Shown here piece after piece: positions 20,223 through 52,436 of a stretch of 64,000 nt of DNA (its first letter is position 1; every line of letters starts with the position of its first letter). The translations under genes were made by a program, and so were the position numbers. Source of the DNA: a bacterium (GTDB taxonomy: Bacteria > Patescibacteriota > Minisyncoccia > Phycocordibacterales > Phycocordibacteraceae); assembly GCA_023269085.1 (NCBI GenBank), contig JAHFML010000001.1:11966-75965 (forward strand), written 5' to 3'. The notes beneath the pieces are model-generated. The model was not told the DNA's origin. It saw nothing but the letters and a program-made list of their open reading frames with translations, and made no database searches.

Positions 20223-20789
20223 TTAAATATTCATACTTTGGTTGCGGAGATTCGTTTTAACTTCCTTATAGTTAGGAAGCATCTTGCCAACAAGACTCCA
20301 AAACTTCTTTGAATGATTGAATTCGCGCAGATGGCATAACTCATGGACGATCACATAGTCACGAGCGTCCATGGGCAGAAAGAGTATCTTGTAATTGAAA
20401 TTAAGATTCCCTCTCTTTGAGCAACTTCCCCACCGAGTCTTCTGATTTTTAATGTTGATCTGACTGAAGCTGAACTGGTAGATAGTATTAAAGTAATTTA
20501 CTCGTTCTACTGCGAGCGCATATGCTTCGTCCTTATATTTCAAGTAATCAGCCTTGCTATGACGAGCGACCGCCTTCCCGCTGAACTGTTTGAAGAACGC
20601 AATCTTTTTGAAAAGCCAGTCTGTCTTCTCTCGAATAAACTTTTCGACAACCGTCTCCTTGAGATCAAAGGGCGACGTGACCACAATCGTACCGTCACAA
20701 TATACTGCGAGACGCATCCTGCGAGCGCGATGACTTTTCCGAAGTGTATAGGTGATCTTTTTATCCTGAAGAGCTATTTGTTTCTCCAT
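20223..20789 (-). CDS. DUF45/YgjP-like zinc metallopeptidase (M48-like), the kind often linked to type I R-M loci
   Basis: WGSCS...YVIVHELCHLREFNHSKKFW signature. Lies immediately downstream of hsdR. Confidence 0.75.
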   Translation of the reverse strand: MEKQIALQDKKITYTLRKSHRARRMRLAVYCDGTIVVTSPFDLKETVVEKFIREKTDWLFKKIAFFKQFSGKAVARHSKADYLKYKDEAYALAVERVNYFNTIYQFSFSQINIKNQKTRWGSCSKRGNLNFNYKILFLPMDARDYVIVHELCHLREFNHSKKFWSLVGKMLPNYKEVKTNLRNQSMNI

Positions 20790-20791: not shown

Positions 20792-23698
20792 TTAGAATTT
20801 CTTCATTACAATATCGACCAAACGATTGAGATATTTGTGGAAGTCACTGACCTGAATACGATCCCGATACTCCTTAAGAACCAGCTCCTGCACGATGCGC
20901 TTCACCTCTTTCAAGAATTCATCGCGCTTGGATGACTCCTGCCATCCCTCGTCGAGAATATTTTCGAGACGATTGGTCATGTCCTTGATGAATTCACGAA
21001 CAATATCTTTATCTCCCCCAACGAACTCCGTCGAAACGACATAGAGACCGTACTCCTTGAGTGAATACCCGAGCTCTTTAGCTTCATCGCCTTTCTTCTT
21101 TATGTCGGCAAGGAGCTCCTGATACCGCTTGATGCGTTCCGAGAGATCAATCTGGTGCTGCTCGAATTCTTTGCGGATTAATCCCAGACGCTCACTGAAC
21201 TTTTTATACGCCGGATTCGTGTCTATGTTGATTGAGATCTCTTGTTTGAGCATCTTCTCGAGATTGAGTGCTTTCTCTTCGTCATCCATCTTGTTGAGCC
21301 GCTCCATGACATAGAGATCATTCACATTGAGCTCGCGGAAGTTCTTGGTGATACCTTCGTAATCAACGCGTTGCTGTATGAGTAGCTTCACCTTCTCCCC
21401 ATACTCCGCGAGAAGTTCAGCATCTGACATCTTCTCGCTGTACTCCTTTTCGAAGGCGAGATAAACGCTCGTAAGCCACTCGAATGTTCGCACAGACTCT
21501 TTCAAGAAAGGATCCGGCGAAAGAATCTCAAACAGAAGTTTGAGCCGTGCATATTTGCCCCGGAAGAACTTCTGCTTGTCGAGATTCTCTGCAAAGATCT
21601 TGAGACATCGACGCAAGTTATCAATAGACGGATCTTCGATATTAATGCCCGTAAAGATATCCATGGTCTCTCTAAGCACCTCGATAAATTCTTCTTTGAG
21701 TTTATCGATATTGAGCATCGCCGAATCAACGATACTCTCGTCAAAATTGAGTGCTTGATAGAGACTCTTGGTAATGCCGTAATAGTCGATGACCTTCCCT
21801 GCCCCCTTGTTTGGATAGACCCGATTGGTGCGCGCAATCGCTTGGAGCAGATTGTGATCCCAAAGCGGCTTGTCGAGATACATCACTTGTTCAACTGGCG
21901 CGTCAAAACCAGTCAGAAGCATGTCGCAGACGAGCAAGAATTTGAGTGAGCTGGTTGGGTTCTTGAATTCGTTGATTATCTTCTCACGCTTCGCCTTTGT
22001 CGTATTGTACTTACGCAAGTCCTCTGAATCCGTATTCGGGTCACCCGGCGAATAAACCACTTCTGACCATTCCTTCGGTACCAGTTGGTCGAATAACTTT
22101 TTATACTTTGCGACTGCCTCGCGGTCATAACAAACAACCTGCGCTTTGAATCCAGACGGCTCTACATACAGACGGTAATGCTCGACAATGTCCCGAGCCA
22201 CCGCCTCCATACGTCGGTCGAGCTTCACGATTGCTTCTTTCTTTCCATACTTCTTTGCCACCACATCACGCTCCTTATCTGAAAGGTCGGTCGTTAGCTC
22301 TTCGAACTGCTTATCGAGCTTCTCGTCATCAATAAAGAATTTAGAAAGCCGCGCTTCGTAGGTCACAGGGAGCGTTGCGCCATCATCGATAGCTTGTTGG
22401 ATGGAATAGTAATCCAAGTATCGCTCTCCTTCTTCTCCGAAGTTGCGGTGCGTATTGAGAGTAACTCGATCGATCGGAGTACCAGTGAAGCCAAAGAAGA
22501 ACGCATTCTTCATCGCGCTTCGCAGATTGATAGCCGACACGCCCTCGTTGTCGCGATGCGCTTCATCCGAGAGCACGATGACATTCTCATCGAGATTCTC
22601 GATATCCTTACCAAGTTCCGAGAACTTCTGGATAGTCGTGATGAAAACTCCACGCTCCGGTGACTGTATTTTCTTCTCCAAATCAGCTCGCGACTCCACC
22701 CGAACCACATTTTTACCGCCGCAATTGACGAAGGTCTCATATATCTGGTCATCAAGATCAATGCGGTCGACGAGAATGAATACCTTCGGATTCTTGAGCT
22801 CTTTGTTGTAGCGGAGCTTCCATGCGGTGAAGAACATGGTGAGCGACTTCCCCGAGCCTTGGGTATGCCAGATGAGCCCGCGCTTTTTATCTCCTTCAAG
22901 CACCCGCTCGACAATCTTGTTGGTAGCCCGCAATTGCTGATATCGCGCGATCTTCTTGATCGTCTGTTCCTTCTCCTTCTCGAAGAGAATAAAGTTCTGA
23001 ATGATATCCAGAAGTCGCTCCTTCTCAAGAAGCGAGACGAGTGTCGCCTCAAGATTCCCTTCTTCAGATTTCTCAAGTTCATCATCTTTCCATTCCAAGA
23101 AGTACTGCACTGGCGCATAAGTTGCTCCATACACTGTCTTCAATCCGTCAGTCGCTACATTGAAACAGTTTGGCCAAAAGAGTTTAAACGCGTTCCGCTC
23201 GTAACGCTTGATCTGTCCGACTGCGTTTGCATAATCCACATTAGTTGCAGCTGTAGGGCTCTTGGCCTCTATATCGACTACTGGCAAGCCGTTCAGAAAT
23301 ATCATTATGTCCGGGCGGATGTTTTCGGAATTACCCTCAAAATAGAACTGATTAGTGACGACGAAGTGATTATTGGCAGGAGTAGTAAAATCTACGATGA
23401 AGTAGTCGCGCATTTTGCCCGTCTGCGGATCCTTGAGATTTACCCCATTGCGCATGACATTCAAGAACGCCTCATTGTTATCGACCTTCTTCACCTCGCG
23501 CACTACCGAAAGTGCCTCGTCATCTTCAATTCCGTTTATCTTCTTCACCGCTTCGAGCAAAAGCGATGTAATGATGTATTCATTCTCAAACTCGCGCAAT
23601 TTCGCAAATTCCGTAGGCACAACATATTCGTATCCCAAACGCTCCCGAAGAAACTTCAGGATATGATTCTCGACCGTGTATTGTTCGTTGAATTTCAT
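20792..23698 (-). CDS. hsdR: Type I restriction enzyme R subunit (HsdR)
   Basis: 968 aa. Walker A HTQGSGKSLTM and DEAH box (LSDEAHR). N-terminal nuclease region. Helicase motifs. Confidence 0.9.
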   Translation of the reverse strand: MKFNEQYTVENHILKFLRERLGYEYVVPTEFAKLREFENEYIITSLLLEAVKKINGIEDDEALSVVREVKKVDNNEAFLNVMRNGVNLKDPQTGKMRDYFIVDFTTPANNHFVVTNQFYFEGNSENIRPDIMIFLNGLPVVDIEAKSPTAATNVDYANAVGQIKRYERNAFKLFWPNCFNVATDGLKTVYGATYAPVQYFLEWKDDELEKSEEGNLEATLVSLLEKERLLDIIQNFILFEKEKEQTIKKIARYQQLRATNKIVERVLEGDKKRGLIWHTQGSGKSLTMFFTAWKLRYNKELKNPKVFILVDRIDLDDQIYETFVNCGGKNVVRVESRADLEKKIQSPERGVFITTIQKFSELGKDIENLDENVIVLSDEAHRDNEGVSAINLRSAMKNAFFFGFTGTPIDRVTLNTHRNFGEEGERYLDYYSIQQAIDDGATLPVTYEARLSKFFIDDEKLDKQFEELTTDLSDKERDVVAKKYGKKEAIVKLDRRMEAVARDIVEHYRLYVEPSGFKAQVVCYDREAVAKYKKLFDQLVPKEWSEVVYSPGDPNTDSEDLRKYNTTKAKREKIINEFKNPTSSLKFLLVCDMLLTGFDAPVEQVMYLDKPLWDHNLLQAIARTNRVYPNKGAGKVIDYYGITKSLYQALNFDESIVDSAMLNIDKLKEEFIEVLRETMDIFTGINIEDPSIDNLRRCLKIFAENLDKQKFFRGKYARLKLLFEILSPDPFLKESVRTFEWLTSVYLAFEKEYSEKMSDAELLAEYGEKVKLLIQQRVDYEGITKNFRELNVNDLYVMERLNKMDDEEKALNLEKMLKQEISINIDTNPAYKKFSERLGLIRKEFEQHQIDLSERIKRYQELLADIKKKGDEAKELGYSLKEYGLYVVSTEFVGGDKDIVREFIKDMTNRLENILDEGWQESSKRDEFLKEVKRIVQELVLKEYRDRIQVSDFHKYLNRLVDIVMKKF

Positions 23699-23704: not shown

Positions 23705-24595
23705 TTATTTCTTCTGTCCATTTCTTAAGATGACAAAACGTATTAGCGAGCCGGTCATGCTAACTACCATCTCCGAATCGTCTCTGTTAAATTCTTTGCA
23801 TGTACCGTGCTTTATTTCATCCATCCAGTTGCGTAAGTTTTTGAAAAGTTCTTTTTGATGACCATTCAATCCTAGAGCTTTTGAGTCGGTCTTGTCTGAT
23901 ATATGCTTAAAACCTTTTTCTCTTTTGCCAGATACTGATTTTACCAACTCATCGCAAGCCGTGTACATGTCCTCAATAACATCTTTGTAGTGCGCTTGTG
24001 TCTTCGCTGTCAAAAATTCCTTTAGCCCATTTTCAAAATGAGAAAGAACGTGTTCAAATCTTTCGTCCGTCTCTAGTAATCCAAGGGTATTTTTAATATC
24101 CGTCTCAAATTTCTTTGAAGTAGTTGGCAAGATCTGTGGCGCTTTTCGTTTATAGATCTTTATGGTCACCCCTAGCATAGGAAAATCATTGAGATATTTT
24201 TCTATACGTTTCGCAAGTTGATCTAATTCAGCTCGCACAAAATCATGTTCTGCTACAACATTCAGCAATACTTGTAATCGCAACAAATATTCTTCGAAAG
24301 ATCCTGAGAAACGGTCTGATATCTCACCGTCAATCATTCGCTTCAATCCAGATGAATAATCTGTGCCATACCAATCGTCGATATCAAAAAATAACTGGCG
24401 ACACACTTCATCTAATATAGCCGACTGAAGTTCCCAGAGTTTTGTACTGTCTTGATACACACTAGGAGAGATGATCGGCCCCAATGCATCGATGATTTCA
24501 CCCTTTAAATATTTCTTGCACCCGACTCGAACACTCTCAATATTGAGTTTGAGTCCAAAGCGGGAATATAAATCTTGATTTGTATTATTGTTCAT
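23705..24595 (-). CDS. Hypothetical 296-aa protein embedded between hsdS and hsdR
   Basis: Translationally coupled with hsdS (ATGA overlap). Lys/Glu-rich and helical. No motif recognised by eye. Its position suggests a defence or abortive-infection passenger. Confidence 0.5.
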   Translation of the reverse strand: MNNNTNQDLYSRFGLKLNIESVRVGCKKYLKGEIIDALGPIISPSVYQDSTKLWELQSAILDEVCRQLFFDIDDWYGTDYSSGLKRMIDGEISDRFSGSFEEYLLRLQVLLNVVAEHDFVRAELDQLAKRIEKYLNDFPMLGVTIKIYKRKAPQILPTTSKKFETDIKNTLGLLETDERFEHVLSHFENGLKEFLTAKTQAHYKDVIEDMYTACDELVKSVSGKREKGFKHISDKTDSKALGLNGHQKELFKNLRNWMDEIKHGTCKEFNRDDSEMVVSMTGSLIRFVILRNGQKK

Positions 24596-25809
24596 ACTTT
24601 TACTCTTTGCTTTCCACTCAACAAATCCTGCATCAGACCTTTTTTCAGTCCTGTGAGTTTTTCCTTCAACTCCTGATTGATCGTCATTTTATCGTCAACC
24701 GATGAAAGCACTTCGGAGATTTTCTTAATCTCATCAATGTTTGATGGCTTCGGAATTGGAATGGAGAACAGCCTATCCTTGTTGAGTTTTGGTTGAGCCA
24801 TGCCAGTTAGAAAAGGCTCGAGATTGATCATATTCAGATAGTCTTGTATATACTTCTGAAGAAATCGATCTTCAAACCTTTGAAGGTGTGCATGATTATT
24901 TACCCAATATTTTCCAATAGCAGTAAAAGCAATCGGGTAATTCCTATCTTTTAGATTCGCGCCATCTTCTGAAATCAAGAGCAACTCTTCATCAAATATA
25001 TAGTCGCCAACATAATCCACAATTCCTGTTGCCCCATAATAAGGATAAGATCCTGATTCACGCTTTGATTTGGTAATAGGAATTCGCTTGTTATCTAGAT
25101 TAGATGAAATATCATTTAGGTTCACAATTTCCCAATCTCTTGGAATCTCACCGATCTCAGTTTTCTTATATTTTGTATGGCCAATGCCTTTGGTAAAAAG
25201 TTGCTGTGTCAGTCCGTGCTTGAGCTTTTTGGTCATAGCAATAATCTCGTCAGTTTTCTGAATTTCTTCATCGACAGAGGTGAGAATCTCAGCAATCTTC
25301 TTTTGTTCCTGCTTGGACTCTGGGAAGAGTATGCTTACTCCCAGAAAATCGTGCTTGGATAGATTAAAACGTGTACTACCTTTTGCATGCGCAGCAATTT
25401 CTTTCCTGAAGACAGACCCTCTGAAAAGGTAGCCTCCGAAAGTTGGATCGAGCAGGTCCTTCTCGGGACGGAATATGAAACAGAAACTGTTCAAATACAA
25501 TTCCACTGGGTCCGAGACCACAGCGGAAGACATTCCGACCTCCTCCGGAGTTTCAGAGCTGGTCGTAAAAATATAGTCCCCATACCGTATCTGATTTTGT
25601 CTCTCTCCATCTTTTATCTCCACGAGGTTAGTAAAATCTTTGTCAAGATGAGGATTACGAAAGACATTCATGTATGGAATGAATGGTCTTCCACTACCAA
25701 AATCTTTCTTAGATTTCCCAGTAAGACCTCCTAAGGTATTACCTAGATCCTCAAGCTTTACTCGTTTCCACTGTGGAGGAACGTTGCGTTGTGAAAGTTT
25801 ACTACTCAT
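24592..25809 (-). CDS. hsdS: Type I R-M specificity subunit (HsdS)
   Basis: Two target-recognition domains separated by conserved helical spacers. Start taken at MSSKLSQRN. Confidence 0.8.
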   Translation of the reverse strand: MSSKLSQRNVPPQWKRVKLEDLGNTLGGLTGKSKKDFGSGRPFIPYMNVFRNPHLDKDFTNLVEIKDGERQNQIRYGDYIFTTSSETPEEVGMSSAVVSDPVELYLNSFCFIFRPEKDLLDPTFGGYLFRGSVFRKEIAAHAKGSTRFNLSKHDFLGVSILFPESKQEQKKIAEILTSVDEEIQKTDEIIAMTKKLKHGLTQQLFTKGIGHTKYKKTEIGEIPRDWEIVNLNDISSNLDNKRIPITKSKRESGSYPYYGATGIVDYVGDYIFDEELLLISEDGANLKDRNYPIAFTAIGKYWVNNHAHLQRFEDRFLQKYIQDYLNMINLEPFLTGMAQPKLNKDRLFSIPIPKPSNIDEIKKISEVLSSVDDKMTINQELKEKLTGLKKGLMQDLLSGKQRVKV

Positions 25810-27616
25810 CTTTAAATTCAATCTCGGTGAAGAGCGCCTTGATGTTCGCTTTTGTGCCATCACTCAACGTAACTTCCCCGGCCCTTGCCTTCTGAAGAAA
25901 CTTGCGTGCAAGCAAAACCTTATCGGGCTTCGGGTTCAGATTCTTGATGTATTCAGAATTTGCGGAAGTATAGACCAGAGACTCGTCTTCCATAACATAA
26001 TTCTTAAAATCCTCTGGGCTGAATATGTCCGCAATGGTTGATCCGTCTTTTTTGAGAACCGTCTTGATGGCATCAGGCAGAACTTTCCATGCCTTCAAGT
26101 TTTTGACCCCATCTTTCTTCCCTTGATCATTATCAAAAAGATAATGTACATCTGCGCCCCACCCCTCCAATATTGTTCCCACGATGCCCATGTTTGGAGC
26201 ACCACCACCATTTATAAAGTTGGTTTTAAGATCTTTCTTTTCAAGCTCCTTGAAAGCACGAAGAAAGAATACATCCTCTGGACCTTCTACGACCACGTTG
26301 TCCTTCTGATCGAGATTGGTGATCGAGTCATTAATGCCGAGGCCGATTGCAGTAAGGATAGGAGTGAGTGTTTCCTTATCAGCAGTCGGGTGTGCATGTA
26401 TCTTCCCCAAGATCTTAGTGCCCGTCCCATCTGAAGGCTTCTCGACGAGCCTGATGTTCTCGAGGTTGTCTTCGGTAATAAGGTAAGGGGAATGTGTGGA
26501 GAAGACGACTGGATTTTCATTCGTGTGTGCCAACAAAACCTGAAGAAGGTCTTTCTGTGCTTTTGCATGCAGGTAAAGTCCCGGTTCATCAATTAGTATG
26601 ACGTTGGGTTTATCTTCCTGAAGCCTTGCAACAATCTTCACGTAAAATGACAAGTACCACTGCTGACCCTTACTTCGTTGTGACGGATAGTAAAGTTTGT
26701 TATTTTCAACGATCCAGAAGTTTATGTCGGTGCCGTCTTTCTTCACCTGTAACTTTATCTTGTCTTGAGTCCAATATTTATCGAACTTCTCCGAGAAGTC
26801 GACGTTTACGGAAGTCTCGTGATTTACTTGCTCTTGTTGATTGGTCGAGGCCATCTTTGCGGTCGAGAAATTACTGACATGCTCAAGATCTTGAGCCCAT
26901 TCATTCGATGTAAGTGAGGCGATTGGGATTGATTTCGGGAACTCATCATCAAAAGATGAGAAGAGAACAAAATATGGCAACTGTGATTTTACAAACTCTG
27001 CAACAAAATCTGTCACGAGCTTCTCCTGAGCGTAGTAATCGTCAGACATTTTTTCTATCATGATCACTTCGGCGACTACATCTGTAAGGCCCGCATTCTG
27101 GGACTTAAAAGTTACAACTTCTGTCTTAAAATCACTAAGTTTCTTTTTTTCGAGGTTTGGAAACTTAACACCGGCTCCTGAGGATTTGATCAGAGCATCT
27201 ATCTTCTTGATAGACTCTTGGATCTGTTTCTTGGAGATTTCATAAATATTTGGGAGATTAATTTGCTTACGTGACTCTGGATCAACGATATACGTCGTGA
27301 CTCCGAATTTCTTGGTTAATGTAATTACTGCATCCTTTGTAACGGTTTTATCAGTACCGATAGCCTTAAGAATTTCATTCGTCTCAGAGTCCGGAAGAAC
27401 AAAAGTGATGGATATCTCTGGAACACCTTCGCCATCTATTGGTTTGGCTTCCTGTCTGATAGTTTTATCTTGATGGAAATCCTCCAATGCTTCCAAAACA
27501 GATGTCTTTCCGGATTCATTCTTACCGGCAAGAATGGTCAGTTTCTCGCTGAAATAACAGTCGCCTGAATCAACAATAGACTTATAGTGCTTGATTCTAA
27601 ATTTGGTGAGTTTCAT
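25802..27616 (-). CDS. OLD-family ATP-dependent endonuclease-like protein (N-terminal ABC-type ATPase, C-terminal TOPRIM)
   Basis: Walker A LAGKNESGKTSVLEAL. Walker B/D-loop ILIDEPGLYLH. TOPRIM-like VVVEGPEDVFFL...LFDNDQG. 604 aa, located between hsdM and hsdS. Confidence 0.65.
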   Translation of the reverse strand: MKLTKFRIKHYKSIVDSGDCYFSEKLTILAGKNESGKTSVLEALEDFHQDKTIRQEAKPIDGEGVPEISITFVLPDSETNEILKAIGTDKTVTKDAVITLTKKFGVTTYIVDPESRKQINLPNIYEISKKQIQESIKKIDALIKSSGAGVKFPNLEKKKLSDFKTEVVTFKSQNAGLTDVVAEVIMIEKMSDDYYAQEKLVTDFVAEFVKSQLPYFVLFSSFDDEFPKSIPIASLTSNEWAQDLEHVSNFSTAKMASTNQQEQVNHETSVNVDFSEKFDKYWTQDKIKLQVKKDGTDINFWIVENNKLYYPSQRSKGQQWYLSFYVKIVARLQEDKPNVILIDEPGLYLHAKAQKDLLQVLLAHTNENPVVFSTHSPYLITEDNLENIRLVEKPSDGTGTKILGKIHAHPTADKETLTPILTAIGLGINDSITNLDQKDNVVVEGPEDVFFLRAFKELEKKDLKTNFINGGGAPNMGIVGTILEGWGADVHYLFDNDQGKKDGVKNLKAWKVLPDAIKTVLKKDGSTIADIFSPEDFKNYVMEDESLVYTSANSEYIKNLNPKPDKVLLARKFLQKARAGEVTLSDGTKANIKALFTEIEFKDE

Positions 27617-27623: not shown

Positions 27624-29447
27624 TCAATAATTCAATTCGTTAAGAAAGCCCTCGACCTTTTTATCTATTTCCGCTCGTTCTTTCTCCAGCGCCACGAGCT
27701 CCTTACGCACCGCAGACACATCGATCTCTTCCTCCTTGTCGCCATTCTCGATATAGCGACGAACATTGAGATTGAATTCGTTCTCTTCGATTTCTTTGAG
27801 ATCTATTACGCGAGCATAGTTCTCGACATCAGCGTAGTTGTCGTAGGCGCGGATAATCTTCTGAATGTCTTGCACGCGAAGCGAGTTCTGATTCTTCCCT
27901 TCGGAGAAGTCCTTTTCGGCATCAATGACAAGCACCTTGTCCTTGCGATTCTCTGGTTTGTTCTTGTTGAAAATGAGAATGGCCGCTGGGATGCTGGTGC
28001 CGTAGAAGAGTTTGGACGGGAGTGCGATTACCGCTTCAAGAAGGTCGTTCTTGAGCAGTTGCTCGCGGATACGCCCCTCTGCGCCACCACGGAAGAGGAC
28101 ACCATGCGGGAGCACAATGCCCGCGCGACCATTTGAATTCATCGACTTGATGATGTGGAGGACAAAAGCATAGTCGGCGTTCTTGTCCGGTGGCATATCA
28201 TAGCCATCGACGCGACCGTATTTGTCGAATTTGAAGAGTTCGTATTCCCAATCCTTGATTGAGTAGGGTGGGTTCGCAACCACAATATCAAAAGTCTTGA
28301 GCGAACCGTTTGGATTGAGGAATTGCGGATTCACGAGTGTATCGCCGCGCTGTATGTCAGCACTGTCGAGTCCGTGCAGGAACATGTTGATCTTGGCAAT
28401 GGCGTAGGTCCCGATGTTGAGCTCCTGACCATAGAGATAAAGAGTGCGGGCAACTGACTCACCCTCTTTCTCTTTCAAGTGATGAAAGGCCTCGAGAAGG
28501 AAACCGCCCGATCCGACCGTCGGGTCATAGATATGGTCCTTCTTGTGCGGTTTAAGAATCTGAATGATCACACCTTCTACTTCGCGTGGGGTATAAAATT
28601 CTCCGCCTTTCTTGCCTGCGTCAGCCGCGAATTGCTTAATGAGATATTCATAGGCATCGCCGAGCAGATCGGAATTGATATAGGTATCACCGAAGTTGTA
28701 CTGCGAGAAATGATTGAGAAGACGCTGAAGCGTCTCATTCGGGAAGCGATCCTTATTAGCAAAATCGAGATCGTCAAAAATCTTATCAAGCTTCGGGCTA
28801 TTGGCATTCGCAAGCTTCTCGAAGACCTCGTTGAGCTTCACGCCGATGTTTTCTGCGCGTTCCTCGATAACTGACCAACGACACTCCTTGGGGACCTGGA
28901 AGCGATGATTATAATCGGCGCGGGCGATCGTTTCATCCTTGAATTCATCCATTACCCGCGCGTACTCCTCGTCCCACACGTCGCTGATGCGCTTATAGAA
29001 AAGAAGTCCGAAGATGTATTTCTTGTAATCCGAGCTGTCGATCTTACCACGAAGGATGTCGGCGCTCTTCCAGAGAAATTGTTCGAGCTGTGGCAGAGTA
29101 AGTTTGCTCCCCATCTTGTCGACGATCGTCTGAATGTCCTGTGGGCGATACTTACGATCGCCGCGCTTACCAGCACGAAGAGGCACCAAGATCCCATCTT
29201 TCTCCCAATTGCGAAGAGTATCGGGGTGGATATTAAAAATTTCGGCTACCTGGCCGATAGAGAGCAAATCTGGCATGTCTTTAAGCTTTGCTTGAATATC
29301 TTTTCGCATATCTATACGCCTCATCCTATCGCCGCACAAATATAATGTCAAGCGTTCATAGGTCTTCATAGGTCTGCATCCTAACTTACGGCTTAAAATA
29401 AGGATAATCTGGTTACCAACAGCTCGGATTTGTGCTCTGGACTTCAA
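27624..29447 (-). CDS. hsdM: Type I R-M DNA methyltransferase subunit (HsdM) with an in-frame N-terminal MerR/excisionase-like HTH extension
   Basis: N6-adenine MTase motifs (NPPY, FYTP) and an HsdM N-terminal domain (LEQFLWKSADILRG). Upstream of it, in the same frame, about 70 aa with LSIGQVAEIFNIHPDTLRNWEKDGIL. Candidate starts are 29447, 29324 and 29309. Confidence 0.85.
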   Translation of the reverse strand: MKSRAQIRAVGNQIILILSRKLGCRPMKTYERLTLYLCGDRMRRIDMRKDIQAKLKDMPDLLSIGQVAEIFNIHPDTLRNWEKDGILVPLRAGKRGDRKYRPQDIQTIVDKMGSKLTLPQLEQFLWKSADILRGKIDSSDYKKYIFGLLFYKRISDVWDEEYARVMDEFKDETIARADYNHRFQVPKECRWSVIEERAENIGVKLNEVFEKLANANSPKLDKIFDDLDFANKDRFPNETLQRLLNHFSQYNFGDTYINSDLLGDAYEYLIKQFAADAGKKGGEFYTPREVEGVIIQILKPHKKDHIYDPTVGSGGFLLEAFHHLKEKEGESVARTLYLYGQELNIGTYAIAKINMFLHGLDSADIQRGDTLVNPQFLNPNGSLKTFDIVVANPPYSIKDWEYELFKFDKYGRVDGYDMPPDKNADYAFVLHIIKSMNSNGRAGIVLPHGVLFRGGAEGRIREQLLKNDLLEAVIALPSKLFYGTSIPAAILIFNKNKPENRKDKVLVIDAEKDFSEGKNQNSLRVQDIQKIIRAYDNYADVENYARVIDLKEIEENEFNLNVRRYIENGDKEEEIDVSAVRKELVALEKERAEIDKKVEGFLNELNY

Positions 29448-29502
29448 AGACGGTCTGCGTCATTCATTGGGTTATATGGAAACAGCCGCAATTCGCACCC
29501 CA

Positions 29503-30804
29503 ATGACATTCGAGCAAGCCGTTACAAGCCCCGTTCGATACTGCCTCTATGCCCGCAAGAGCACCGAACAGGACGAGCTTCAAGCCGACTCGCAGATCAA
29601 GGAGATGAGCGAGGCGGCCATCAGAGACGGATTGGAGATAGCTGAAGTCAGAAAAGAATCGCACTCGGCCAAGGAGTCTGGCCAGCGACCGGTCTTCAAG
29701 AAGATGCTCGAAGATATACGCAGAGGTATGTTCAACGGCATCATCGCGTGGGATCCATCCCGTATAAGCCGCAACGCTGGAGACCTCGGATCAGTCGTCG
29801 ATCTAATGGACCAGAAGCTTATCGTCGATATCCGAACGCATGGGCAACGATTTACCAACTCGCCGAATGAGAAATTCCTCTTGATGATTCTCTGTAGCCA
29901 GGCGAAGCTCGAGAATGATCATAAGGGAGAGAACGTGAAGCGCGGTCTCCGAGCGAAGTGCGACATGGGATATCGACCCGGCGTCTCGCCGATCGGTTAC
30001 ATCCATGACAAATATGCTGACAAAGGACAAAAGCGCGTTCTCGTCGATCCTAAGCGTGCGCCGATTGTCAAGCAGATGTTCGAGAAGGTCGCGTACGAAG
30101 ATTGGAGCGGTCGCGACTTGCATGAATGGTTTGTGCAAACCGGCTTCATGACCCGATCTGGCAAACGTGTGGCGCTCTCGGGCATCTACAGGATGCTCAA
30201 GGATACTTTCTATTACGGGGAGTTCGAATATCCTGAAGGGAGCGGAAAAATCTACCGAAGTGCCGTCGAGTCAATTATAACGAAGGAGCTATTCCTCAAG
30301 GCCCAAGCAAATCTGCAGGCTCCCCCACGCAGACATCCCGGCACCAACGAGTTCGGATTCACCCGCCTCTTCATCTGTGGCGCGTGCGGCTCCGGTATCA
30401 CTGCCGAAGAAAAGTTCAAGAACCTCAAGAATGGTGCTCGCAATCGGTATGTTTATTATCACTGCACTCGGTATAACGATAAACGCTGTAAAGAGAAACC
30501 GATTCGTGAAGAAAACCTTGTTGAGCAATTGCTGCGGATTATCGACAAGGTCGATAACAATGAGATTGGTGCCCGTGCGCAGATCGGTAAAGAGGTCGCG
30601 CGATATCGTCAGATTGCTTATGGCGTCCTCGGTTACGAACCAGAGCTTGTTCGAGTACCGCCTGAAGCCGATGTGAGACAGTACACGAAGCACGTACTCA
30701 AGTACGGCACCAAGGAAGAGCGGCGGGAGATAATTGGGTGTCTCGATGGAAGAATTGAACTCAAGAGCAAGAATCTTGGTATACGAATCTTTGCAGAATG
30801 CTAA
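29503..30804 (+). CDS. Large serine recombinase (resolvase/invertase catalytic domain, recombinase domain and zinc ribbon)
   Basis: YARKSTEQDE catalytic Ser region. A C-x2-C...C-x-C zinc ribbon (CGACGSG...YYHCTRYNDKRC). Divergent from hsdM. The longest ORF starts at 29467. Confidence 0.8.
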   Translation: MTFEQAVTSPVRYCLYARKSTEQDELQADSQIKEMSEAAIRDGLEIAEVRKESHSAKESGQRPVFKKMLEDIRRGMFNGIIAWDPSRISRNAGDLGSVVDLMDQKLIVDIRTHGQRFTNSPNEKFLLMILCSQAKLENDHKGENVKRGLRAKCDMGYRPGVSPIGYIHDKYADKGQKRVLVDPKRAPIVKQMFEKVAYEDWSGRDLHEWFVQTGFMTRSGKRVALSGIYRMLKDTFYYGEFEYPEGSGKIYRSAVESIITKELFLKAQANLQAPPRRHPGTNEFGFTRLFICGACGSGITAEEKFKNLKNGARNRYVYYHCTRYNDKRCKEKPIREENLVEQLLRIIDKVDNNEIGARAQIGKEVARYRQIAYGVLGYEPELVRVPPEADVRQYTKHVLKYGTKEERREIIGCLDGRIELKSKNLGIRIFAEC

Positions 30805-30813: not shown

Positions 30814-31347
30814 ATGACATACGCTCAAGCCGAAGCTTCATTTGGACGCTTCAAAGAGAGATTGCGCGAGCGTCTTGGTCTTAAAAAAGTCAAGAAACAA
30901 GTGCACGATCAGCGAACCAAAGATACTTTCGCAAAATCAGATCCTGACACCAAGATGAAAGTAATTGGGCCGCAGTTGGAATTCTTCACATCCTCCGTGT
31001 CGCGGAAGTCTGATCTACTCCCGACAATAGCAACACTTGTAGCTACTTTGATAGTTGTTGCTACTTTGAATCATGATTTGGTACCTCTACAGCCAAAAGA
31101 GACGAAAACGATTTTGACTCTATTCCTCATACTTATTCCAAGCACTCTGCATTACTACATAAAGCTTATGGAACGTACTGCCAGACAAGCTGTCGATGTA
31201 ATCGATTCATATCAAGGATTTAACGCCTTTGATAAACTTGGGCCGATTTCTTTCTTGCAATACCTAAGTTCCGATATTCCGATAATTATTGTCTATATTC
31301 TCTATGGGGTCGTCGGGCTTATAATCTTTAGAGTTTGGTTCGGATAG
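30814..31347 (+). CDS. Hypothetical membrane protein
   Basis: ORF with C-terminal TM helices. AT-rich. Confidence 0.35.
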   Translation: MTYAQAEASFGRFKERLRERLGLKKVKKQVHDQRTKDTFAKSDPDTKMKVIGPQLEFFTSSVSRKSDLLPTIATLVATLIVVATLNHDLVPLQPKETKTILTLFLILIPSTLHYYIKLMERTARQAVDVIDSYQGFNAFDKLGPISFLQYLSSDIPIIIVYILYGVVGLIIFRVWFG

Positions 31348-31359: not shown

Positions 31360-31395
31360 CGACCCATCCCCGGCCTTTCGGACGGGGATGGGTCG
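31360..31395. terminator. Stable 12-bp hairpin cgacccatcccc...ggggatgggtcg with a weak U-tract on either strand, between the island and the tRNA 3' end
   Basis: Seen directly. Possibly a bidirectional terminator or processing signal. Confidence 0.35.
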
Positions 31396-31452
31396 GTTGC
31401 ACAGGATTCATCTGCTCCGCGGGTAGGATTCGAACCTACGACCAACTCGTTA

Positions 31453-32032
31453 CACGTTGCCTCTTGTTACCAAGAGAGTGGACTATATCATCACCCGTAT
31501 CTGTTCTCACAGATCGAGGGTGCGAGGCGCTTCGTCCTTCGATTATTCTCAGGACTACTCCCTTGCGGGATAGTCTCTACACCTTCCTCTCGACATGCGC
31601 CGAGAGACTTGGCTCGGGATTGCCCACAGCATTTCCTCTGTTAGGGGTTCCCCGAATTCACCTCGTGTTCGACCTGAATCTCTTCAGGAAGCTGCGTAAT
31701 GCCTGCGTGCACTTCACGGTGACAATTCGCACAAACAAGAGCGCATTTATCGATTTCTTCTTTGATTTTTTCCCATGATCTCGTGAGCCCTTTTGTCGAG
31801 AGACCGAAGTCTTTCTTCGTAGGATCTTTATGGTGAAAATCAAGCGCTCCTGAATAACGATCGTAACCGCAAATAATGCACTTCCCGCCTTTGTACTCAC
31901 GCGCCATTTCTCGAAGTTTTTTACGACGTTCAGTAACAGCTTTGCGCAAATACTCTGCACGGTCGGCATAAGTCCTTTTTTCTTTTGGCATACTCAGATA
32001 AGTATACCATTGGGTTTCGGACTTGAACCACA
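31453..32032 (-). other. Intervening sequence inside the tRNA anticodon loop, a candidate ORF-containing group I intron (boundaries +/-2 nt)
   Basis: The 5' exon ends in U and the insert ends in G. The insert contains two GNRA-tetraloop hairpins (cucuug-GUAA-caagag at 31461-31476 and uccc-GCAA-ggga at 31561-31572, both read on the minus strand). The same-strand HNH ORF lies within it. Classic P1/P7 elements were not confidently identified by eye. Confidence 0.45.
31641..31991 (-). CDS. Small HNH endonuclease (116 aa) encoded within the tRNA intervening sequence
   Basis: CIICG...LDFHHKDP...CANCH: a HNH/His-Me finger with two CxxC pairs. Same orientation as the tRNA. Confidence 0.7.
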   Translation of the reverse strand: MPKEKRTYADRAEYLRKAVTERRKKLREMAREYKGGKCIICGYDRYSGALDFHHKDPTKKDFGLSTKGLTRSWEKIKEEIDKCALVCANCHREVHAGITQLPEEIQVEHEVNSGNP

Positions 32033-32150
32033 GCGAGCCGCTCTACCACTGAGCTACCGCGGAATATTTTTAGCACCAGAACACTCACCCACCTCGCTAT
32101 GAGGCGGTGTTCATAGTCTACCTGAAAAATCGCGAGCCGCAACAGCGACA

Positions 32151-44477: not shown

Positions 44478-45283
44478 TTATCGTTGCTGACATTGGCGGG
44501 ACCCACCTGCGCATCGCGGCGAGCGACACGCCTGACACGTTCGAAGAGCCGGTCGTCGTCGACACGCCGGTCGCCTTCGATGAGGGTGTTGCGGCCTTTG
44601 CCGCAGCCGTACGCACCGCCGCCAAAGATCGCCCCGTTACTGGCGCGGTCGCTGGCATCGCGGGAGTCTTTTCGCGTGATCGTCACATGCTCCTCATCTC
44701 TCCGCACTTGCCCGAATGGTGCGGCCGCGATATTGCAGGCGCCTTCAGCGCGGCTATCAGCGCACCGGTCGAGGTCGAGAACGATGTCGTGCTCGGCGCT
44801 CTTGGCGAAGCGCATCACGGCGCTGGTAGGGGTGCCGCGATTGTCGTCTATGTCGCGGTCGGCACCGGCGTGGGCGGCGCACGCGTCTCTCACGGCGCCG
44901 TTGAGCCTGCGACCTTCGGCTTCGAGATCGGTCACCAGCTCCTCGGCACGGGCGAGGGCGCACCCGAGTGGGAGTCGCTGATCTCGGGCACTGGGATCGA
45001 GAATCGTTATAACGCGCCCGCCGCCGAGATCACCGATCCGGCCGTGTGGGAGCGGTGCGCTGACGATTTCGCCTATGGGCTCTACAACACGCTTCTGCAT
45101 TGGTCGCCCGAGCGTGTCGTCCTCGGTGGGTCGGCCTTCAAAGGCACCGCTGCAATCCCGCTCGAACGCGTCCGCACGACGCTTGGCGCTATCAATCAAT
45201 ACCTGCCCGAGCTGCCCGAGCTCTGTCTTGCCGAGCTCGACTACCCCGGCCTCTACGGCGCCCTCGTCAGGAGCGCCTCCTAA
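44474..45283 (+). CDS. ROK-family glucokinase
   Basis: MIIVADIGGTHLRIA ATP-binding N-terminus. EIGHQ motif. Confidence 0.7.
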   Translation: MIIVADIGGTHLRIAASDTPDTFEEPVVVDTPVAFDEGVAAFAAAVRTAAKDRPVTGAVAGIAGVFSRDRHMLLISPHLPEWCGRDIAGAFSAAISAPVEVENDVVLGALGEAHHGAGRGAAIVVYVAVGTGVGGARVSHGAVEPATFGFEIGHQLLGTGEGAPEWESLISGTGIENRYNAPAAEITDPAVWERCADDFAYGLYNTLLHWSPERVVLGGSAFKGTAAIPLERVRTTLGAINQYLPELPELCLAELDYPGLYGALVRSAS

Positions 45284-45286
45284 GCG

Positions 45287-45311
45287 CGGGTGGACACCTA
45301 GTGTCCACCCG
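45287..45311. repeat. REP-like palindrome, copy 2 (cgggtggacacctagtgtccacccg)
   Basis: Identical core. Lies immediately after the ROK stop and before the terminator hairpin. Confidence 0.85.
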
Positions 45312-45319
45312 TTAGGCAT

Positions 45320-45344
45320 AAAAAAGAGCCACCGAAGTGGCTCT
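45320..45344 (-). terminator. Rho-independent terminator for the minus-strand gene 45369-46010 (agagccac-cgaa-gtggctct, U-run on the minus transcript)
   Basis: Stem-loop flanked by A5 on plus, which is U5 on the minus strand. Confidence 0.6.
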
Positions 45345-45368
45345 TGAAGGCGGCGAGACTTGGTAGCC

Positions 45369-46010
45369 CTAGCTGTCGATACTTTTCTGCGCTTGGGCGA
45401 ACAGGGCGCGTTGTTCAATGGGAAGATCGAGGTCATCCTTTGCCACGCGGAGCGCGGCGTTGAATGCTGCTCGTGCGGTCAGGACATTTCTTGCTGTCCT
45501 GATGACAGCCTCCTCCGATATCGCAATATTCAGACGCTTTTTCAGAAACTCGGCTTCGGCACGCAACACGGCATTGGCGAGACCAACGAGCACCATCTCG
45601 ACGAATGCCACATTGCACAACCAATTTTTGTCGTCTTGGCTGGAATAAAGCACCTCGACCTTCTGGCGGAACTCTTCGAGTTGTCCACTGACAACGGCAA
45701 ATTGATCACTAAACTTCATAGAGCGCAATATCGCGAAGGAAGATATTGCCACTACGACACACCCCATGATTACGAGAAGTATTGGACTTAACTGCTTACA
45801 TTTGGGAGCAATAACCACAGTCAAAACAAAGATATTTAGAAGAAGGAAACCGAAACCAAGGAAATACCAGAATTTCTTTCCTTCTTGCAGAAGATCAAGT
45901 TGTGTAGCCTTCTCCTTCAGCGAACCAACCTCGGGATGCCGGCGTTCGTAGCCGGCGATGAGATCGTCATGGACATGCTCGATGAGAGCACTGATGTCTT
46001 TCGTTTTCAT
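45369..46010 (-). CDS. Hypothetical membrane protein
   Basis: ORF with two TM helices. Confidence 0.4.
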   Translation of the reverse strand: MKTKDISALIEHVHDDLIAGYERRHPEVGSLKEKATQLDLLQEGKKFWYFLGFGFLLLNIFVLTVVIAPKCKQLSPILLVIMGCVVVAISSFAILRSMKFSDQFAVVSGQLEEFRQKVEVLYSSQDDKNWLCNVAFVEMVLVGLANAVLRAEAEFLKKRLNIAISEEAVIRTARNVLTARAAFNAALRVAKDDLDLPIEQRALFAQAQKSIDS

Positions 46011-46173
46011 TTCGAACCCCTTTTCAAGGTGCCTTTGGCGGCCACGGTCTTTCGGACACGCTTGCGAGCTTTCGACCCGCGAGCGTAGGGCCTCTCGGCC
46101 GTCGTGTAGCCCAAAATAGCCCAGGCGACTATTCCGTGCATATTAGAGCACTTACCTACTATTTATGCAAGAG

Positions 46174-46223
46174 CACCCTGCGGGTGGACACCGGGTGGAC
46201 ACCTAGTGTCCACCCGCAGGGTG
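46174..46223. repeat. REP-like element, copy 3: extended 18-bp hairpin caccctgcgggtggacac...gtgtccacccgcagggtg with a duplicated left half-site
   Basis: Seen directly. Lies 8 nt upstream of the transposase-like gene. Confidence 0.85.
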
Positions 46224-46230
46224 TATACTG

Positions 46231-46932
46231 ATGCGTATGGGATATCGAGAATCGGTTACTGACTCCTATGTGCATGTCTATAATCGCGGCGCGAAGAAGC
46301 TTGATATATTTCGTGAACATGCCGACCTCTTTCGTCTTATGTACGGCCTCTACTATTTCAACAACGAAAATCCGATGTCCGCTTCGTGGGTGCGCGATGT
46401 TGAACGCGCAGGAGGCATGCACACTTTCGCATGGCCGGAACATTGGGAACCGCGCGCGCCGCTCGTCTCAATACTCGCATTCACCATCATGCCGAACCAT
46501 TTTCATATCGTCTTGAAGGAGATTGTTGACGGCGGTGTCGGGAAGTTTATGCATCGGGTCAGCATGAGTTATTCAAAATTCATCAACGAAAAATATGCTG
46601 AGAACGGTAGCTTATTCCAGGGCACGTATAAAGCTCGGCGTATTGACGACGAAACAGATCTCCACAATTTATTGGTCTACACGATGATCAAGAACCCTTT
46701 TGAACTATACCCGAGCGGCCTGCGGCACGCGTGCCAGAATTTTGATCAAGCGTACGATCATGCTCTTGCGTATCCTCTCACGAGTCTCGCCGAATACGTA
46801 GAGCATACGAGCCCCGCAATACTTGATCATGGCCTGCTACGCGACATCGGCGAGGACCGGAGTGCTTTCAAAGAATTTGCCCGAGAGAGCATGGCGCATC
46901 ATCTCGATCAGATGAACATATTCGATTTCTAG
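46231..46932 (+). CDS. IS200-like / REP-associated tyrosine transposase (RAYT)-like protein (Y1 HUH family)
   Basis: N-terminal YVHVYNRGAKKLDIF (the YHV.NRG signature of the PF01797-like family). HuH motif MPNHFHIVL. Downstream Tyr candidates. REP copies flank it on both sides. Confidence 0.65.
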   Translation: MRMGYRESVTDSYVHVYNRGAKKLDIFREHADLFRLMYGLYYFNNENPMSASWVRDVERAGGMHTFAWPEHWEPRAPLVSILAFTIMPNHFHIVLKEIVDGGVGKFMHRVSMSYSKFINEKYAENGSLFQGTYKARRIDDETDLHNLLVYTMIKNPFELYPSGLRHACQNFDQAYDHALAYPLTSLAEYVEHTSPAILDHGLLRDIGEDRSAFKEFARESMAHHLDQMNIFDF

Positions 46933-46947
46933 CCGTAGCGAACTCGG

Positions 46948-46973
46948 ACGGGTGGACACCTAGTGTCCACCCG
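46948..46973. repeat. REP-like palindrome, copy 4, between the convergent transposase and helicase genes
   Basis: acgggtggacacctagtgtccacccgt. Confidence 0.85.
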
Positions 46974-46978
46974 TCTGG

Positions 46979-48676: not shown

Positions 48677-49158
48677 GAGGGCACAGTCGCACTGGCCTGC
48701 AAGCGGCGCGTCGCGACGAGCGAGGTTATATACGCGAGGATGAAGAAGATCATGCCGGTGAAGCAGGGGCTCGCGAGCGGCGAGAGGCCCGGCGTGCAGG
48801 AGACCGAGATCGCACCCGCGATGACCTTGTAGTAGATCAGCACCTCATACGCGACGACCGTCGCCGCGAAGACAGAACAGCAGAGCAAGAAGATGCTCAA
48901 ACGCTTCTCGCGCAGATACGTCGTCGTCTGATAGACCGAGAGCGACCACACCAAGGCGACGATGAAGCCGAGAGAGCCGTAGAGGCAGGCCGTCTTGAGC
49001 GGATTCGGCACGGTGCACCCGACGAAGTGGAAGAAGGTGTGATAGGTCGCGTAGAAGGTCGTCACTTGCGGCACGAGCTTTGACCACGCGAACATCGAGC
49101 CGACTAAGAGGAACACGGTCTGGAGGGCGACGAGCCCGCGCGCTTGGGTGGTAGGCAT
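48673..49158 (-). CDS. Hypothetical membrane protein
   Basis: ORF with 4 predicted TM segments. Confidence 0.35.
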   Translation of the reverse strand: MPTTQARGLVALQTVFLLVGSMFAWSKLVPQVTTFYATYHTFFHFVGCTVPNPLKTACLYGSLGFIVALVWSLSVYQTTTYLREKRLSIFLLCCSVFAATVVAYEVLIYYKVIAGAISVSCTPGLSPLASPCFTGMIFFILAYITSLVATRRLQASATVPS

Positions 49159-49171
49159 GTGAGATGATGTG

Positions 49172-49354
49172 CTAATTGGTTTCGCGACACTCTTGCACTA
49201 CTCTACGCTGTTCTGCATTCGCTTCACGCAATACCTGACGAATGACCTTTGCTTTGTGACCAGAAGATTTGCTAAAGAAATCCGAAAAATCGCTAGAGGT
49301 TTTCTTCCCTCCGCTCCGGAAAGCACCGAAAAATCCTTTTATTTCATTGGTCAT
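49172..49354 (-). CDS. Small basic protein (60 aa), translationally coupled to the upstream zeta-toxin-like gene
   Basis: ATGA overlap with 49351-50055. Confidence 0.3.
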   Translation of the reverse strand: MTNEIKGFFGAFRSGGKKTSSDFSDFFSKSSGHKAKVIRQVLREANAEQRRVVQECRETN

Positions 49355-50055
49355 ACAAGTATCTCAGTGAGTACATCTACAGAGTAGCGGTCATCTGCCA
49401 GACGGTCAAGCTCATTTGCAGGAACATTCAATCGCACTTCTCCCTCGTTCGCCGCATAATTTTTGATGAGAATGTTCAGTTCAATATTCTTACCAAACAT
49501 ATCCTTTACGATTCGGACATTGGCACGCGACTCAAAGAATGCATTGATGAAGACTTCTTTGGAGATTCGACGCGCTTCGCGTACCTCACGTGCTTTGGTA
49601 AACTCCCAAGCACGTATCGGATCTTGATATATAAACCAAATCTCGATCTTTCGTCCGTGTTTTAACGACCTTTCAATATTCTCAGAAGCTCCCGCATAGA
49701 TAAACGTGCTATCCATAATGCAGTTTATCTCTTTATCGAGAGCATAATCGTACAAGAAGTTAACCCCCTTGTTTGCCGCCTTTTGGAAGAGGTGCGCGTT
49801 ACCCCCAAGATAGCTGGGGCATAAACTTCGTATTTCATCCGCGTCTATGCGTACGGGCGTATCTCTAAATCTTCTGACCAGACCCTTCGACACTTCCGTC
49901 TTACCTGCTCCGGGAGAACCCGCCATAAAGAGCGAGACCGGATTGGTGACGGCATGGCAGAGAGAGGGCGGACAAAACGTGTCGAGAACAAGCTTTTTAT
50001 TATGTTTGATGAATTCGAGTGCCTCATCCTCAATACGCTTTTCTTCTTCAGTCAT
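49351..50055 (-). CDS. Zeta-toxin-family P-loop kinase-like protein
   Basis: Walker A MAGSPGAGKT plus the downstream D..R of zeta/PezT-like kinases. Confidence 0.6.
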   Translation of the reverse strand: MTEEEKRIEDEALEFIKHNKKLVLDTFCPPSLCHAVTNPVSLFMAGSPGAGKTEVSKGLVRRFRDTPVRIDADEIRSLCPSYLGGNAHLFQKAANKGVNFLYDYALDKEINCIMDSTFIYAGASENIERSLKHGRKIEIWFIYQDPIRAWEFTKAREVREARRISKEVFINAFFESRANVRIVKDMFGKNIELNILIKNYAANEGEVRLNVPANELDRLADDRYSVDVLTEILV

Positions 50056-50087
50056 GTCTCCATTCTACCTCGCGCCGGCCGCAGTTT

Positions 50088-51311: not shown

Positions 51312-51395
51312 ACCCTGTCAGAATATGCTTTCCCTACCTTTCTCGCAACTGCGCCATGCGGTGTCTTTCTGTGTTTGTTTTGATATACTGGAGCT

Positions 51396-52433: not shown

Positions 52434-52436
52434 TTT

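Follow-up and report, generated by a model that had tools for sequence, protein, structure and literature searches.

We examined a 64-kb window of bacterial DNA, the whole of the stretch that was analysed, in which a tRNA gene on the minus strand is split in its anticodon loop by an intervening sequence of 577 nt that carries a short reading frame for an HNH endonuclease. All positions are window coordinates, and the tRNA with everything inside it is read on the minus strand. An initial annotation of this DNA had described the two tRNA halves and had proposed that the insert between them, then sized at about 580 nt, is a mobile group I intron with a homing endonuclease gene. The host is a member of the Patescibacteria (Paceibacterota/Minisyncoccia-like), as judged from the sequence of ProS (prolyl-tRNA ligase, 3831-5273), which is 82-88% identical to the nearest named Paceibacterota, Minisyncoccia or Patescibacteria proteins, and from the named relatives of the HNH protein, which belong to lineages of the candidate phyla radiation.

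The interrupted tRNA-Asn gene

The two tRNA halves are real. The 3′ exon (TAACGAGTTGGTCGTAGGTTCGAATCCTACCCGCGGAG, 31452-31415) lies exactly where it had been annotated, and the 5′ exon (TCCGCGGTAGCTCAGTGGTAGAGCGGCTCGCTGT, 32063-32030) lies one base lower than the 32064-32031 first given for it. When joined, the exons pair at 7/7 positions of the acceptor stem and 5/5 of the anticodon stem (one G-U), with the D-loop AGUGGUA and the T-loop UUCGAAU, all as described before. The insert is preceded by an exon U and has G as its last base, again as described; its first base is G at 32029 and its terminal (omega) G is at 31453.

With default settings, which allow no introns, ARAGORN reports zero tRNAs in the whole window, a known blind spot of the program that is not evidence against the gene. 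When introns are allowed the split tRNA is recognized and called Thr(tgt) i(33,577). ARAGORN accepts both products when they are spliced in silico, Asn-GUU or, if both junctions are moved two bases upstream, Thr-UGU. These are the two outcomes, splicing after U35 or after U33, that the initial annotation had left open, and in the window the 33/34 junction likewise follows a U and ends in G.

Homologous genes decide between them. All of 65 homologous introns have U-1 and a terminal G if the junction is placed at 35/36, whereas placing it at 33/34 puts A or T where the terminal G should be in 25 of the 65. Intron-less alleles, sought by scanning metagenomes with the 38-nt spliced tRNA-Asn junction, were found at 100 loci where the junction is uninterrupted, and at 34 of these the gene is identical (72/72) to the predicted spliced Asn product. 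The usual tRNA-Asn pattern is U1-A72 with G73, as is seen here. The tRNA is Asn(GUU) with its intron between positions 35 and 36, and the assignment to Thr(UGU) at 33/34 is wrong.

The ribozyme and the nuclease gene inside it

Rfam Intron_gpI (RF00028; gathering score 50 bits) matches the minus strand at 31749-31460 with 67.5 bits (E = 5.7e-15 for the whole window) and is the sole Rfam family above threshold in the window. The alignment contains P3, P4-P6, P7, P8 and P9, the group I core that the annotation had anticipated. Relative to the model, 39 nt are inserted between P7 and the 3′ strand of P3, and they fold as two hairpins, UCCC-GCAA-GGGA (P7.1) and GUCCU...AGGAC (P7.2). On the presence of these extra helices, which mark the subgroup, the intron is placed in subgroup IA. 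Hairpins capped by GNRA loops had been noted before and are indeed present, but they number four rather than two (L2 GAGA, L7.1 GCAA, L8 GAGA and L9 GUAA). Among homologous loci, 17 of 20 scanned with RF00028 were above threshold, and scores ranged from 55.8 to 80.4 bits.

To assess this fold we aligned 51 introns from the guide sequence to the 3′ exon and tested the helices of the structure drawn for the window intron, in which P6a and P7.2 were placed by hand. Standard pairs fill 90.9% of cells, against 33-49% when the partners are slid by 1-3 columns, and both sides have changed in 396 cells, against 37-78 in the slid controls; such changes occur in 26 pairs. The observed values were not attained in any of 500 shuffles. 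Compensatory changes are found in P2, P3, P4, P7.1, P8 and P9, and P7 is invariant. Every column that is invariant across the 51 introns is intact in the window intron, and all of its core helices pair.

The internal guide sequence was positioned from homologues that lack an open reading frame (ORF). One of these, L021, reads CUGU/CAGCAAG-GCAGC-UU (the slash marks the splice site), followed by the P2 hairpin and then P3, which gives P1 a seven-base loop; L033 and L061 are similar. In the window, U35 (32030) would form the splice-site wobble with the guide G at 31695. The guide region contains GCAGCTTCC, invariant across the intron family, and the guide string GCAGCUUCC is invariant whatever base occupies tRNA position 31, so that P1 consists essentially of four base pairs with the invariant bases of the anticodon loop. 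We also observed that L050, L021 and L033 share the 35/36 site, the guide GCAGCUU and P2 but lack P7.1 and P7.2, P7 being followed directly by the 3′ strand of P3. As L050 nevertheless carries the HNH ORF, no fewer than two ribozyme types host the nuclease gene.

The same-strand ORF of 116 amino acids had been recognized as an HNH gene in the initial annotation, and profile searches agree: the match to Pfam PF01844 is marginal (22.7 bits, cutoff 21.4), and PHROG 2255, a phage HNH family, matches at E = 1.8e-31. More than 1,200 homologues were found. Residues C38, C41, H53, H54, C87, N89, C90 and H91 are invariant in 36 of them and H95 is conserved in at least 90%; the two CxxC pairs and the His/Asn/His motif residues are conserved, and the protein is of the zinc-ribbon HNH type. 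Compared with 54 homologues over 84 codons, pN is 0.07-0.26 and pS is 0.68-0.95, synonymous sites being saturated, and the protein is thus under purifying selection. An AlphaFold2 model has a pLDDT of 83.7, with residues 106-116 below 50. Its best Foldseek matches are all HNH nucleases (Cap5, T4 endonuclease VII, the Cas9 HNH domain and Gme HNH), the best at E = 0.2.

The reading frame overlaps the ribozyme. Because the guide lies seven nucleotides after the splice site in ORF-less introns and at 31695-31691 in the window, the ORF occupies the loop of P1 (L1). Over its last 19 codons it runs through the guide, through P2 (31688-31673) and through the 5′ strands of P3, P4 and P5, and the stop codon lies just beyond the 5′ strand of P5. 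The alignment of the 36 homologues becomes ragged past ...GITQLP.EI, and the conservation of 'TQLP' probably reflects the encoded guide GCAGCUUCC; that the end of the ORF reads through the ribozyme probably explains why the C-terminus is ragged and disordered. In related loci the HNH tails vary in length, with stops from P2 to beyond P5, and these tails (the region of 31641-31699 in the window) are translated ribozyme sequence, for example ...VEHEVNSGNP and ...VEKRGEFGE.

The beginning of the ORF is also structured. Splice site and AUG are separated by 38 nt that end in a hairpin holding the start codon, with a minimum free energy (MFE) of -11.9 kcal/mol compared with -4.3 when the upstream sequence is shuffled. 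For 56 loci the corresponding means are -9.5 and -4.5 kcal/mol, and the stems differ in sequence among loci, as in CUGAUAUAA/UUAUGUCAG and GGCAUAAAG/UUUUAUGCC. The same stretch in the window also reads as a -10-like motif, TGnTATACT, and an extended -10-like TGnTATAAT motif lies 6-12 nt before the ORF start in 40 of the 56 loci, with no Shine-Dalgarno sequence. A sigma-70 promoter scan does not call the motif, no -35 element accompanies it, and it overlaps the covarying hairpin. The hairpin may act as a translation block, as a promoter for a leaderless mRNA, or as both. RNA structure near the start codon holds back the translation of phage intron endonucleases, and by analogy the hairpin would limit translation here. 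With the start codon in a hairpin and the end of the ORF running through the guide and P2-P5, translation and ribozyme folding are probably mutually exclusive.

Table 1. Features of the window, in window coordinates ('with' joins the two strands of a helix).
Feature	Position	Strand	Basis or remark
Interrupted tRNA	32063-31415	-	Joined exons form a 72-nt cloverleaf
tRNA-Asn(GUU) 5′ exon, positions 1-35, ending C32 U33 G34 U35	32030..32063	-	Sequence, ARAGORN on in-silico splice, exon finder
tRNA-Asn 3′ exon, U36 A37 A38 to discriminator G73; CCA not encoded	31415..31452	-	Sequence, ARAGORN, exon finder
Group I intron, 577 nt, between tRNA positions 35 and 36	31453..32029	-	RF00028, exons, 34 identical uninterrupted genes
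Hairpin GGUAUACUU-AUCU-GAGUAUGCC, start codon 31991-31989 in 3′ arm	31987..32008	-	MFE compared with shuffled sequence
HNH endonuclease ORF, 116 aa, stop TAA 31643-31641	31641..31991	-	Pfam, PHROG, homologue alignment
Predicted internal guide sequence GCAGC; P1 with exon C32-U35 (32033-32030) and G31 (32034)	31691..31695	-	Position from ORF-less homologues
P2 hairpin CCUGAA-GAGA-UUCAGG	31673..31688	-	96% of cells paired; both-sided changes in 4/6 pairs
P3 5′ strand, pairs with 31529-31523	31659..31665	-	98% paired; both-sided changes in 4/7 pairs
P3 3′ strand	31523..31529	-	Alignment of 51 introns
P4-P5-P6 domain	31582..31655	-	RF00028 and alignment of 51 introns
P4	31655-31650 with 31619-31614	-	97-100% paired, covarying
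P5	31647-31645 with 31625-31623	-	Poorly aligned (56%)
P6	31612-31611 with 31583-31582	-	
P6a	31607-31601 with 31592-31586	-	Hand-drawn
P7 5′ strand GACUA, guanosine-binding helix, pairs with 31485-31481	31571..31575	-	Invariant in 51 introns
P7.1 and P7.2 insertion region	31534..31570	-	Insertion relative to RF00028
P7.1 (GCAA loop)	31570-31567 with 31562-31559	-	Covaries, 91% paired
P7.2	31555-31551 with 31538-31534	-	Hand-drawn
P8 (31522-31518 with 31496-31492), distal stem, GAGA loop 31508-31505	31492..31522	-	94% paired; both-sided changes in 4/5 pairs
J8/7 (AUGAUA) and P7 3′ strand UAGUC	31481..31491	-	Invariant columns, 51 introns
P9 hairpin, GUAA loop 31470-31467	31460..31477	-	RF00028 and alignment of 51 introns
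G+C-rich hairpin, 13-15 bp, GAAA loop, 20 nt past tRNA 3′ end	31360..31395	-	Between tRNA and convergent island gene
Small membrane protein	30814-31347		Island
Large serine recombinase	29467-30804	Convergent with tRNA	Island
HsdM, type I restriction-modification	27624-29447		Island
AAA_15 ATPase	25802-27616		Island; within the listed type I restriction-modification system
HsdS	24592-25863		Island
HsdR	20792-23698		Island
YgjP-like peptidase	20223-20789		Island

Related loci, intron-less alleles and the neighbouring island

A profile scan with the HNH alignment, covering one genome per species (GTDB), yielded at least 600 pattern matches and, among them, at least 591 confirmed loci encoding HNH relatives, and the flanking DNA of the best 80 of these was taken for exon and intron analysis. 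At least 64 of the best 80 have a perfect tRNA-Asn cloverleaf split as ...CUGU, then 498-716 nt with the HNH ORF inside, then G-UAA..., and several further loci share this architecture but are cut by contig ends. By comparison, an HNH homologue lies nearby in 1 of the 100 intron-less tRNA-Asn loci. The presence of the intron is polymorphic at otherwise identical tRNA-Asn alleles, as the 34 identical empty genes attest, and insert-free homologous loci of the kind that the initial annotation had proposed to look for therefore exist.

Some homologues of the nuclease gene stand outside an intron, upstream of tRNA-Asn in L021, L033 and L061 and downstream of it in L026, L028 and L034; L049 is another free-standing case. 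These copies keep the start-codon hairpin, and the adjoining tRNA-Asn has either an ORF-less intron (176-226 nt) or none. In L034 the HNH gene is followed by a short duplicate of the tRNA 3′ end (CCCGCGGAGC). The free-standing copies may represent stages in the invasion of the intron by the nuclease gene.

HNH-bearing 35/36 tRNA-Asn introns were also seen on contigs labelled Acidobacteriota, namely L070 (a 172-kb Blastocatellales contig), L052 (Pyrinomonadaceae) and L039. For L070 the label looks right, because a neighbouring MscS-like gene has Blastocatellia/Acidobacteria relatives at 71-100% identity. Other loci bear unchecked labels from outside Patescibacteria (Gammaproteobacteria, Omnitrophota, Methylomirabilota and Burkholderiales). 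The guide bases 31695-31692 are predicted to pair only with C32-U33-G34-U35, which are common to tRNAs with GUN anticodons (Asn, Asp, His and Tyr), and any GUN-anticodon tRNA would therefore be a potential host; this sharing of CUGU would explain the published 35/36 introns in tRNAs for Asn, Asp and Tyr.

The AT-rich island that had been annotated as ending at the 3′ half of the tRNA was recovered. It spans ~20.2-31.35 kb (~11 kb), has a GC content of 0.38-0.50 compared with ~0.6 elsewhere, and abuts the 3′ end of the tRNA. A convergent large serine recombinase lies 0.2-1.7 kb downstream of tRNA-Asn, mostly at 0.5-0.6 kb, in 15 of 43 intron-bearing loci (L002, L007, L009, L012, L016, L027, L036, L043, L045, L046, L048, L050, L062, L067 and L080). 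The same arrangement is found beside 18 of the 100 intron-less genes; recombinase-bearing metagenome loci include L083, L086, L099, L102 and L110. As the recombinase accompanies intron-bearing and intron-less genes alike, island and intron are independent users of tRNA-Asn. In these bacteria the 3′ flank of this gene appears to be a place where serine-recombinase islands integrate repeatedly. Within the window the tRNA 3′ end occurs only once, and a search for direct repeats flanking the island gave no convincing case. Among the fetched loci, which were searched for an island-free allele of the neighbourhood, none has both flanks.

The hairpin at 31360-31395 is not called as an intrinsic terminator and no T-run follows it; a match to mir-7445 at this place is a spurious, sub-threshold chance match. 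A second low-GC stretch of accessory appearance, at ~45000-56500, encodes a Y1 (IS200-like) transposase-like ORF, a RecD2-like helicase, a zeta toxin, a PRiA4_ORF3 protein, DUF3800 and DUF6941 proteins and an Mrr-type restriction endonuclease. Looked up by exact sequence, the HNH and TspO proteins led to no source contig, and the SET-domain neighbour was recovered only on a 2.5-kb Logan contig that carries no taxonomy.

Known introns, proposed mechanism and alternatives

The group I introns of Azoarcus tRNA-Ile and Anabaena tRNA-Leu belong to subgroup IC3, lack an ORF and lie at 36/37 or 34/35. The window intron resembles these self-splicing anticodon-loop introns in the derivation of P1 from anticodon-loop bases and differs from them in P7.1/P7.2 (IA), the 35/36 site and the ORF. 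Phage group I introns that encode HNH or GIY-YIG endonucleases, such as I-HmuI of SPO1 (HNH type) and I-TevI of the T4 td intron, hold the nuclease gene in a peripheral loop with the end of the ORF intruding into ribozyme elements. The window intron shares with them the peripheral-loop gene, the ORF end in the ribozyme and structure in the start region and, with I-HmuI, the HNH type. Unlike it, the phage introns reside in protein-coding phage genes and their nucleases are larger, with separate DNA-binding modules; a PDB sequence search and Foldseek gave no significant match of the window nuclease to phage intron endonucleases.

A class of introns corresponding to the one studied here was described by Nakagawa et al. 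(mSystems 2026, PMC13011429; preprint 10.1101/2025.07.03.662931), who reported 35/36 group I introns in Patescibacteria tRNA-Asn(GUU). In 95 complete Patescibacteria genomes there were 15 such introns, four of them with PF01844 HNH genes, and nearly all introns of this kind were classed in subgroup IA. One tRNA-Asn and one tRNA-Asp 35/36 intron spliced themselves precisely in vitro, and the products were sequenced. These authors also state that ARAGORN and tFind miscall such genes as Thr(UGU) at 33/34, with a two-base shift, and that IA introns bearing a homing endonuclease gene at 35/36 were seen only in Patescibacteria, with the proviso that draft genomes might reveal more; limited mobility was inferred from the complete genomes. 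The window locus has every testable defining feature of that class (a Patescibacteria host, tRNA-Asn and the 35/36 site) and is alike also in U-1 and the terminal G, in its IA features, in carrying the PF01844 HNH gene found in a subset, in being missed by default tools and in the miscall as Thr(UGU). It is apparently not in their table, the nearest HNH protein on record being 91% identical and an exact match being absent.

The earlier view that it would be unusual for a bacterial tRNA intron to bear an HNH gene is consequently out of date, given the published class with its four HNH cases and the at least 591 loci with HNH relatives found here. Several features go slightly beyond the passages of Nakagawa et al. 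that treat this class: an ORF that lies in L1 and runs on into the guide and P2-P5, a hairpin at its start codon, the free-standing HNH genes, the many HNH copies in draft genomes, the Blastocatellales copy and the recurrent serine-recombinase islands. They are unreplicated and come mostly from related loci. An earlier preprint on tFind (Williams, 2020; bioRxiv 10.1101/2020.01.27.920355) mapped new anticodon-loop group I intron sites in bacterial tRNA genes computationally, including metagenomic unnamed phyla, and its class 'Asn.4Ug' is that of the window according to Nakagawa et al. (2026); the main text of Williams (2020) contains neither an endonuclease analysis nor experiments. Other bacterial tRNA anticodon-loop introns with homing endonuclease genes, summarized by Nakagawa et al. 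(2026), are a cyanobacterial tRNA-fMet intron with a PD-(D/E)XK enzyme and tRNA-Arg(CCU) introns with LAGLIDADG genes; they differ from that of the window in tRNA, site (33/34 or 36/37) and nuclease family.

We propose that in the folded pre-tRNA, exon bases C32-U33-G34-U35 would pair with the guide GCAG(C), giving a P1 that includes a U35-G wobble, that an external guanosine bound in P7 would cleave after U35, and that the terminal G (31453) would then enter the guanosine site, allowing the exons to join and produce the anticodon loop CUGUUAA. That the intron splices in its host is expected from its anatomy and from the homologues spliced in vitro. The most likely role of the HNH enzyme is homing, in which it would cut intron-less tRNA-Asn genes close to the place where the intron is inserted and repair of the cut would install a copy of the intron. 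Ribosomes reading into the guide and P2-P5 would disrupt folding of the ribozyme, the hairpin would restrain translation, and the probable exclusion of one process by the other would keep expression of the nuclease low.

We are thus highly confident that the locus is a Patescibacteria tRNA-Asn(GUU) gene with a subgroup IA group I intron at 35/36 carrying an HNH gene that most likely serves homing. The layout of a mobile-type intron that the initial annotation had recognized is borne out by the RF00028 core, the covariation in 51 introns, purifying selection on the ORF and the intron-less alleles. Several points weigh on the other side. P1 has only 4-5 bp, lacks covariation support and rests on position and on analogy with ORF-less introns. 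P10 is not evident in the window intron, where it would be at most UAA:UUA with a one-base offset, and the partner bases vary across the family. The nuclease is very small with no recognizable extra DNA-binding domain, has no significant structural relative (Foldseek E ≥ 0.2), and has as its best PDB sequence match the HNH domain of a group II intron maturase (E = 2e-4). As the view is limited to 64 kb, a second tRNA-Asn gene may also lie elsewhere in the genome.

This last point would suit a dead tRNA pseudogene, broken by a decayed element that does not splice, with a functional tRNA-Asn at another place; no other tRNA lies in the window, and nothing marks this copy as essential. Such decay is most improbable for an intron in which all columns invariant in 51 relatives are intact and the core helices pair, whose exons match uninterrupted genes at 72/72 positions and whose ORF is intact and under purifying selection; moreover, intron-bearing and intron-less copies of one anticodon rarely coexist in a genome (Nakagawa et al., 2026). 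A tRNA-Thr(UGU) with the same intron two bases upstream, which the intron-aware ARAGORN call and the U and G at the 33/34 junction of the window would favour, has hardly any probability left in view of the terminal bases of the 65 homologous introns, the 34 uninterrupted Asn genes, the U1-A72 pair with G73 and the sequenced products of the introns of tRNA-Asn and of tRNA-Asp, which show excision at 35/36 (Nakagawa et al., 2026). Equally slight is the chance that a serine-recombinase island integrated into the tRNA gene and delivered the intron with a replacement 3′ exon. The island abuts the tRNA, its GC content (0.38-0.50) is similar to that of the intron and its recombinase recurs beside intron-bearing genes, but the same arrangement adjoins intron-less genes, the recombinase is missing at 28 of the 43 intron-bearing loci, and neither a second tRNA 3′ end nor flanking direct repeats were found in the window.

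The remaining alternative is unlikely, though considerably less so than these: the intron would splice, and the HNH protein would be a maturase, a domesticated nuclease or the product of an independently moving selfish gene. ORF-less relatives splice alone in vitro (Nakagawa et al., 2026), the protein is tiny and has no recognizable target-recognition domain, the ORF occurs in ribozymes with and without P7.1/P7.2, and close homologues stand free just upstream of tRNA-Asn genes with short ORF-less introns or, in other loci, downstream of tRNA-Asn. Against this stand the tight linkage of the ORF to the 35/36 site (at least 64 of the best 80 loci, compared with 1 of 100 intron-less ones), the variable presence of the intron at identical tRNA alleles and the strong purifying selection, which fits an active nuclease. 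The free-standing copies beside the target gene are consistent with established ways in which homing genes enter introns.

For annotation, the consequence is that default tRNA finders miss the gene and intron-aware ones call it tRNA-Thr, so that such genomes look as if they lacked tRNA-Asn and estimates of completeness for Patescibacteria are distorted. The locus is one more case of a recently described class and does not overturn current understanding. Judging by the related loci, introns with the endonuclease gene seem to be far commoner than the four cases in print would indicate, to have empty target alleles and to occur outside Patescibacteria too. We tentatively entertain, while giving it slightly the lesser weight, that the HNH-bearing 35/36 intron may be one actively homing lineage and not the rare, largely immobile curiosity to which complete genomes had pointed; empty alleles of identical tRNAs are common. 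This matter bears on whether these introns survive in reduced genomes through homing or because they are difficult to lose, and, if the lineage is actively homing, its ORF would be wired into the ribozyme in such a way that translation and splicing would exclude each other.

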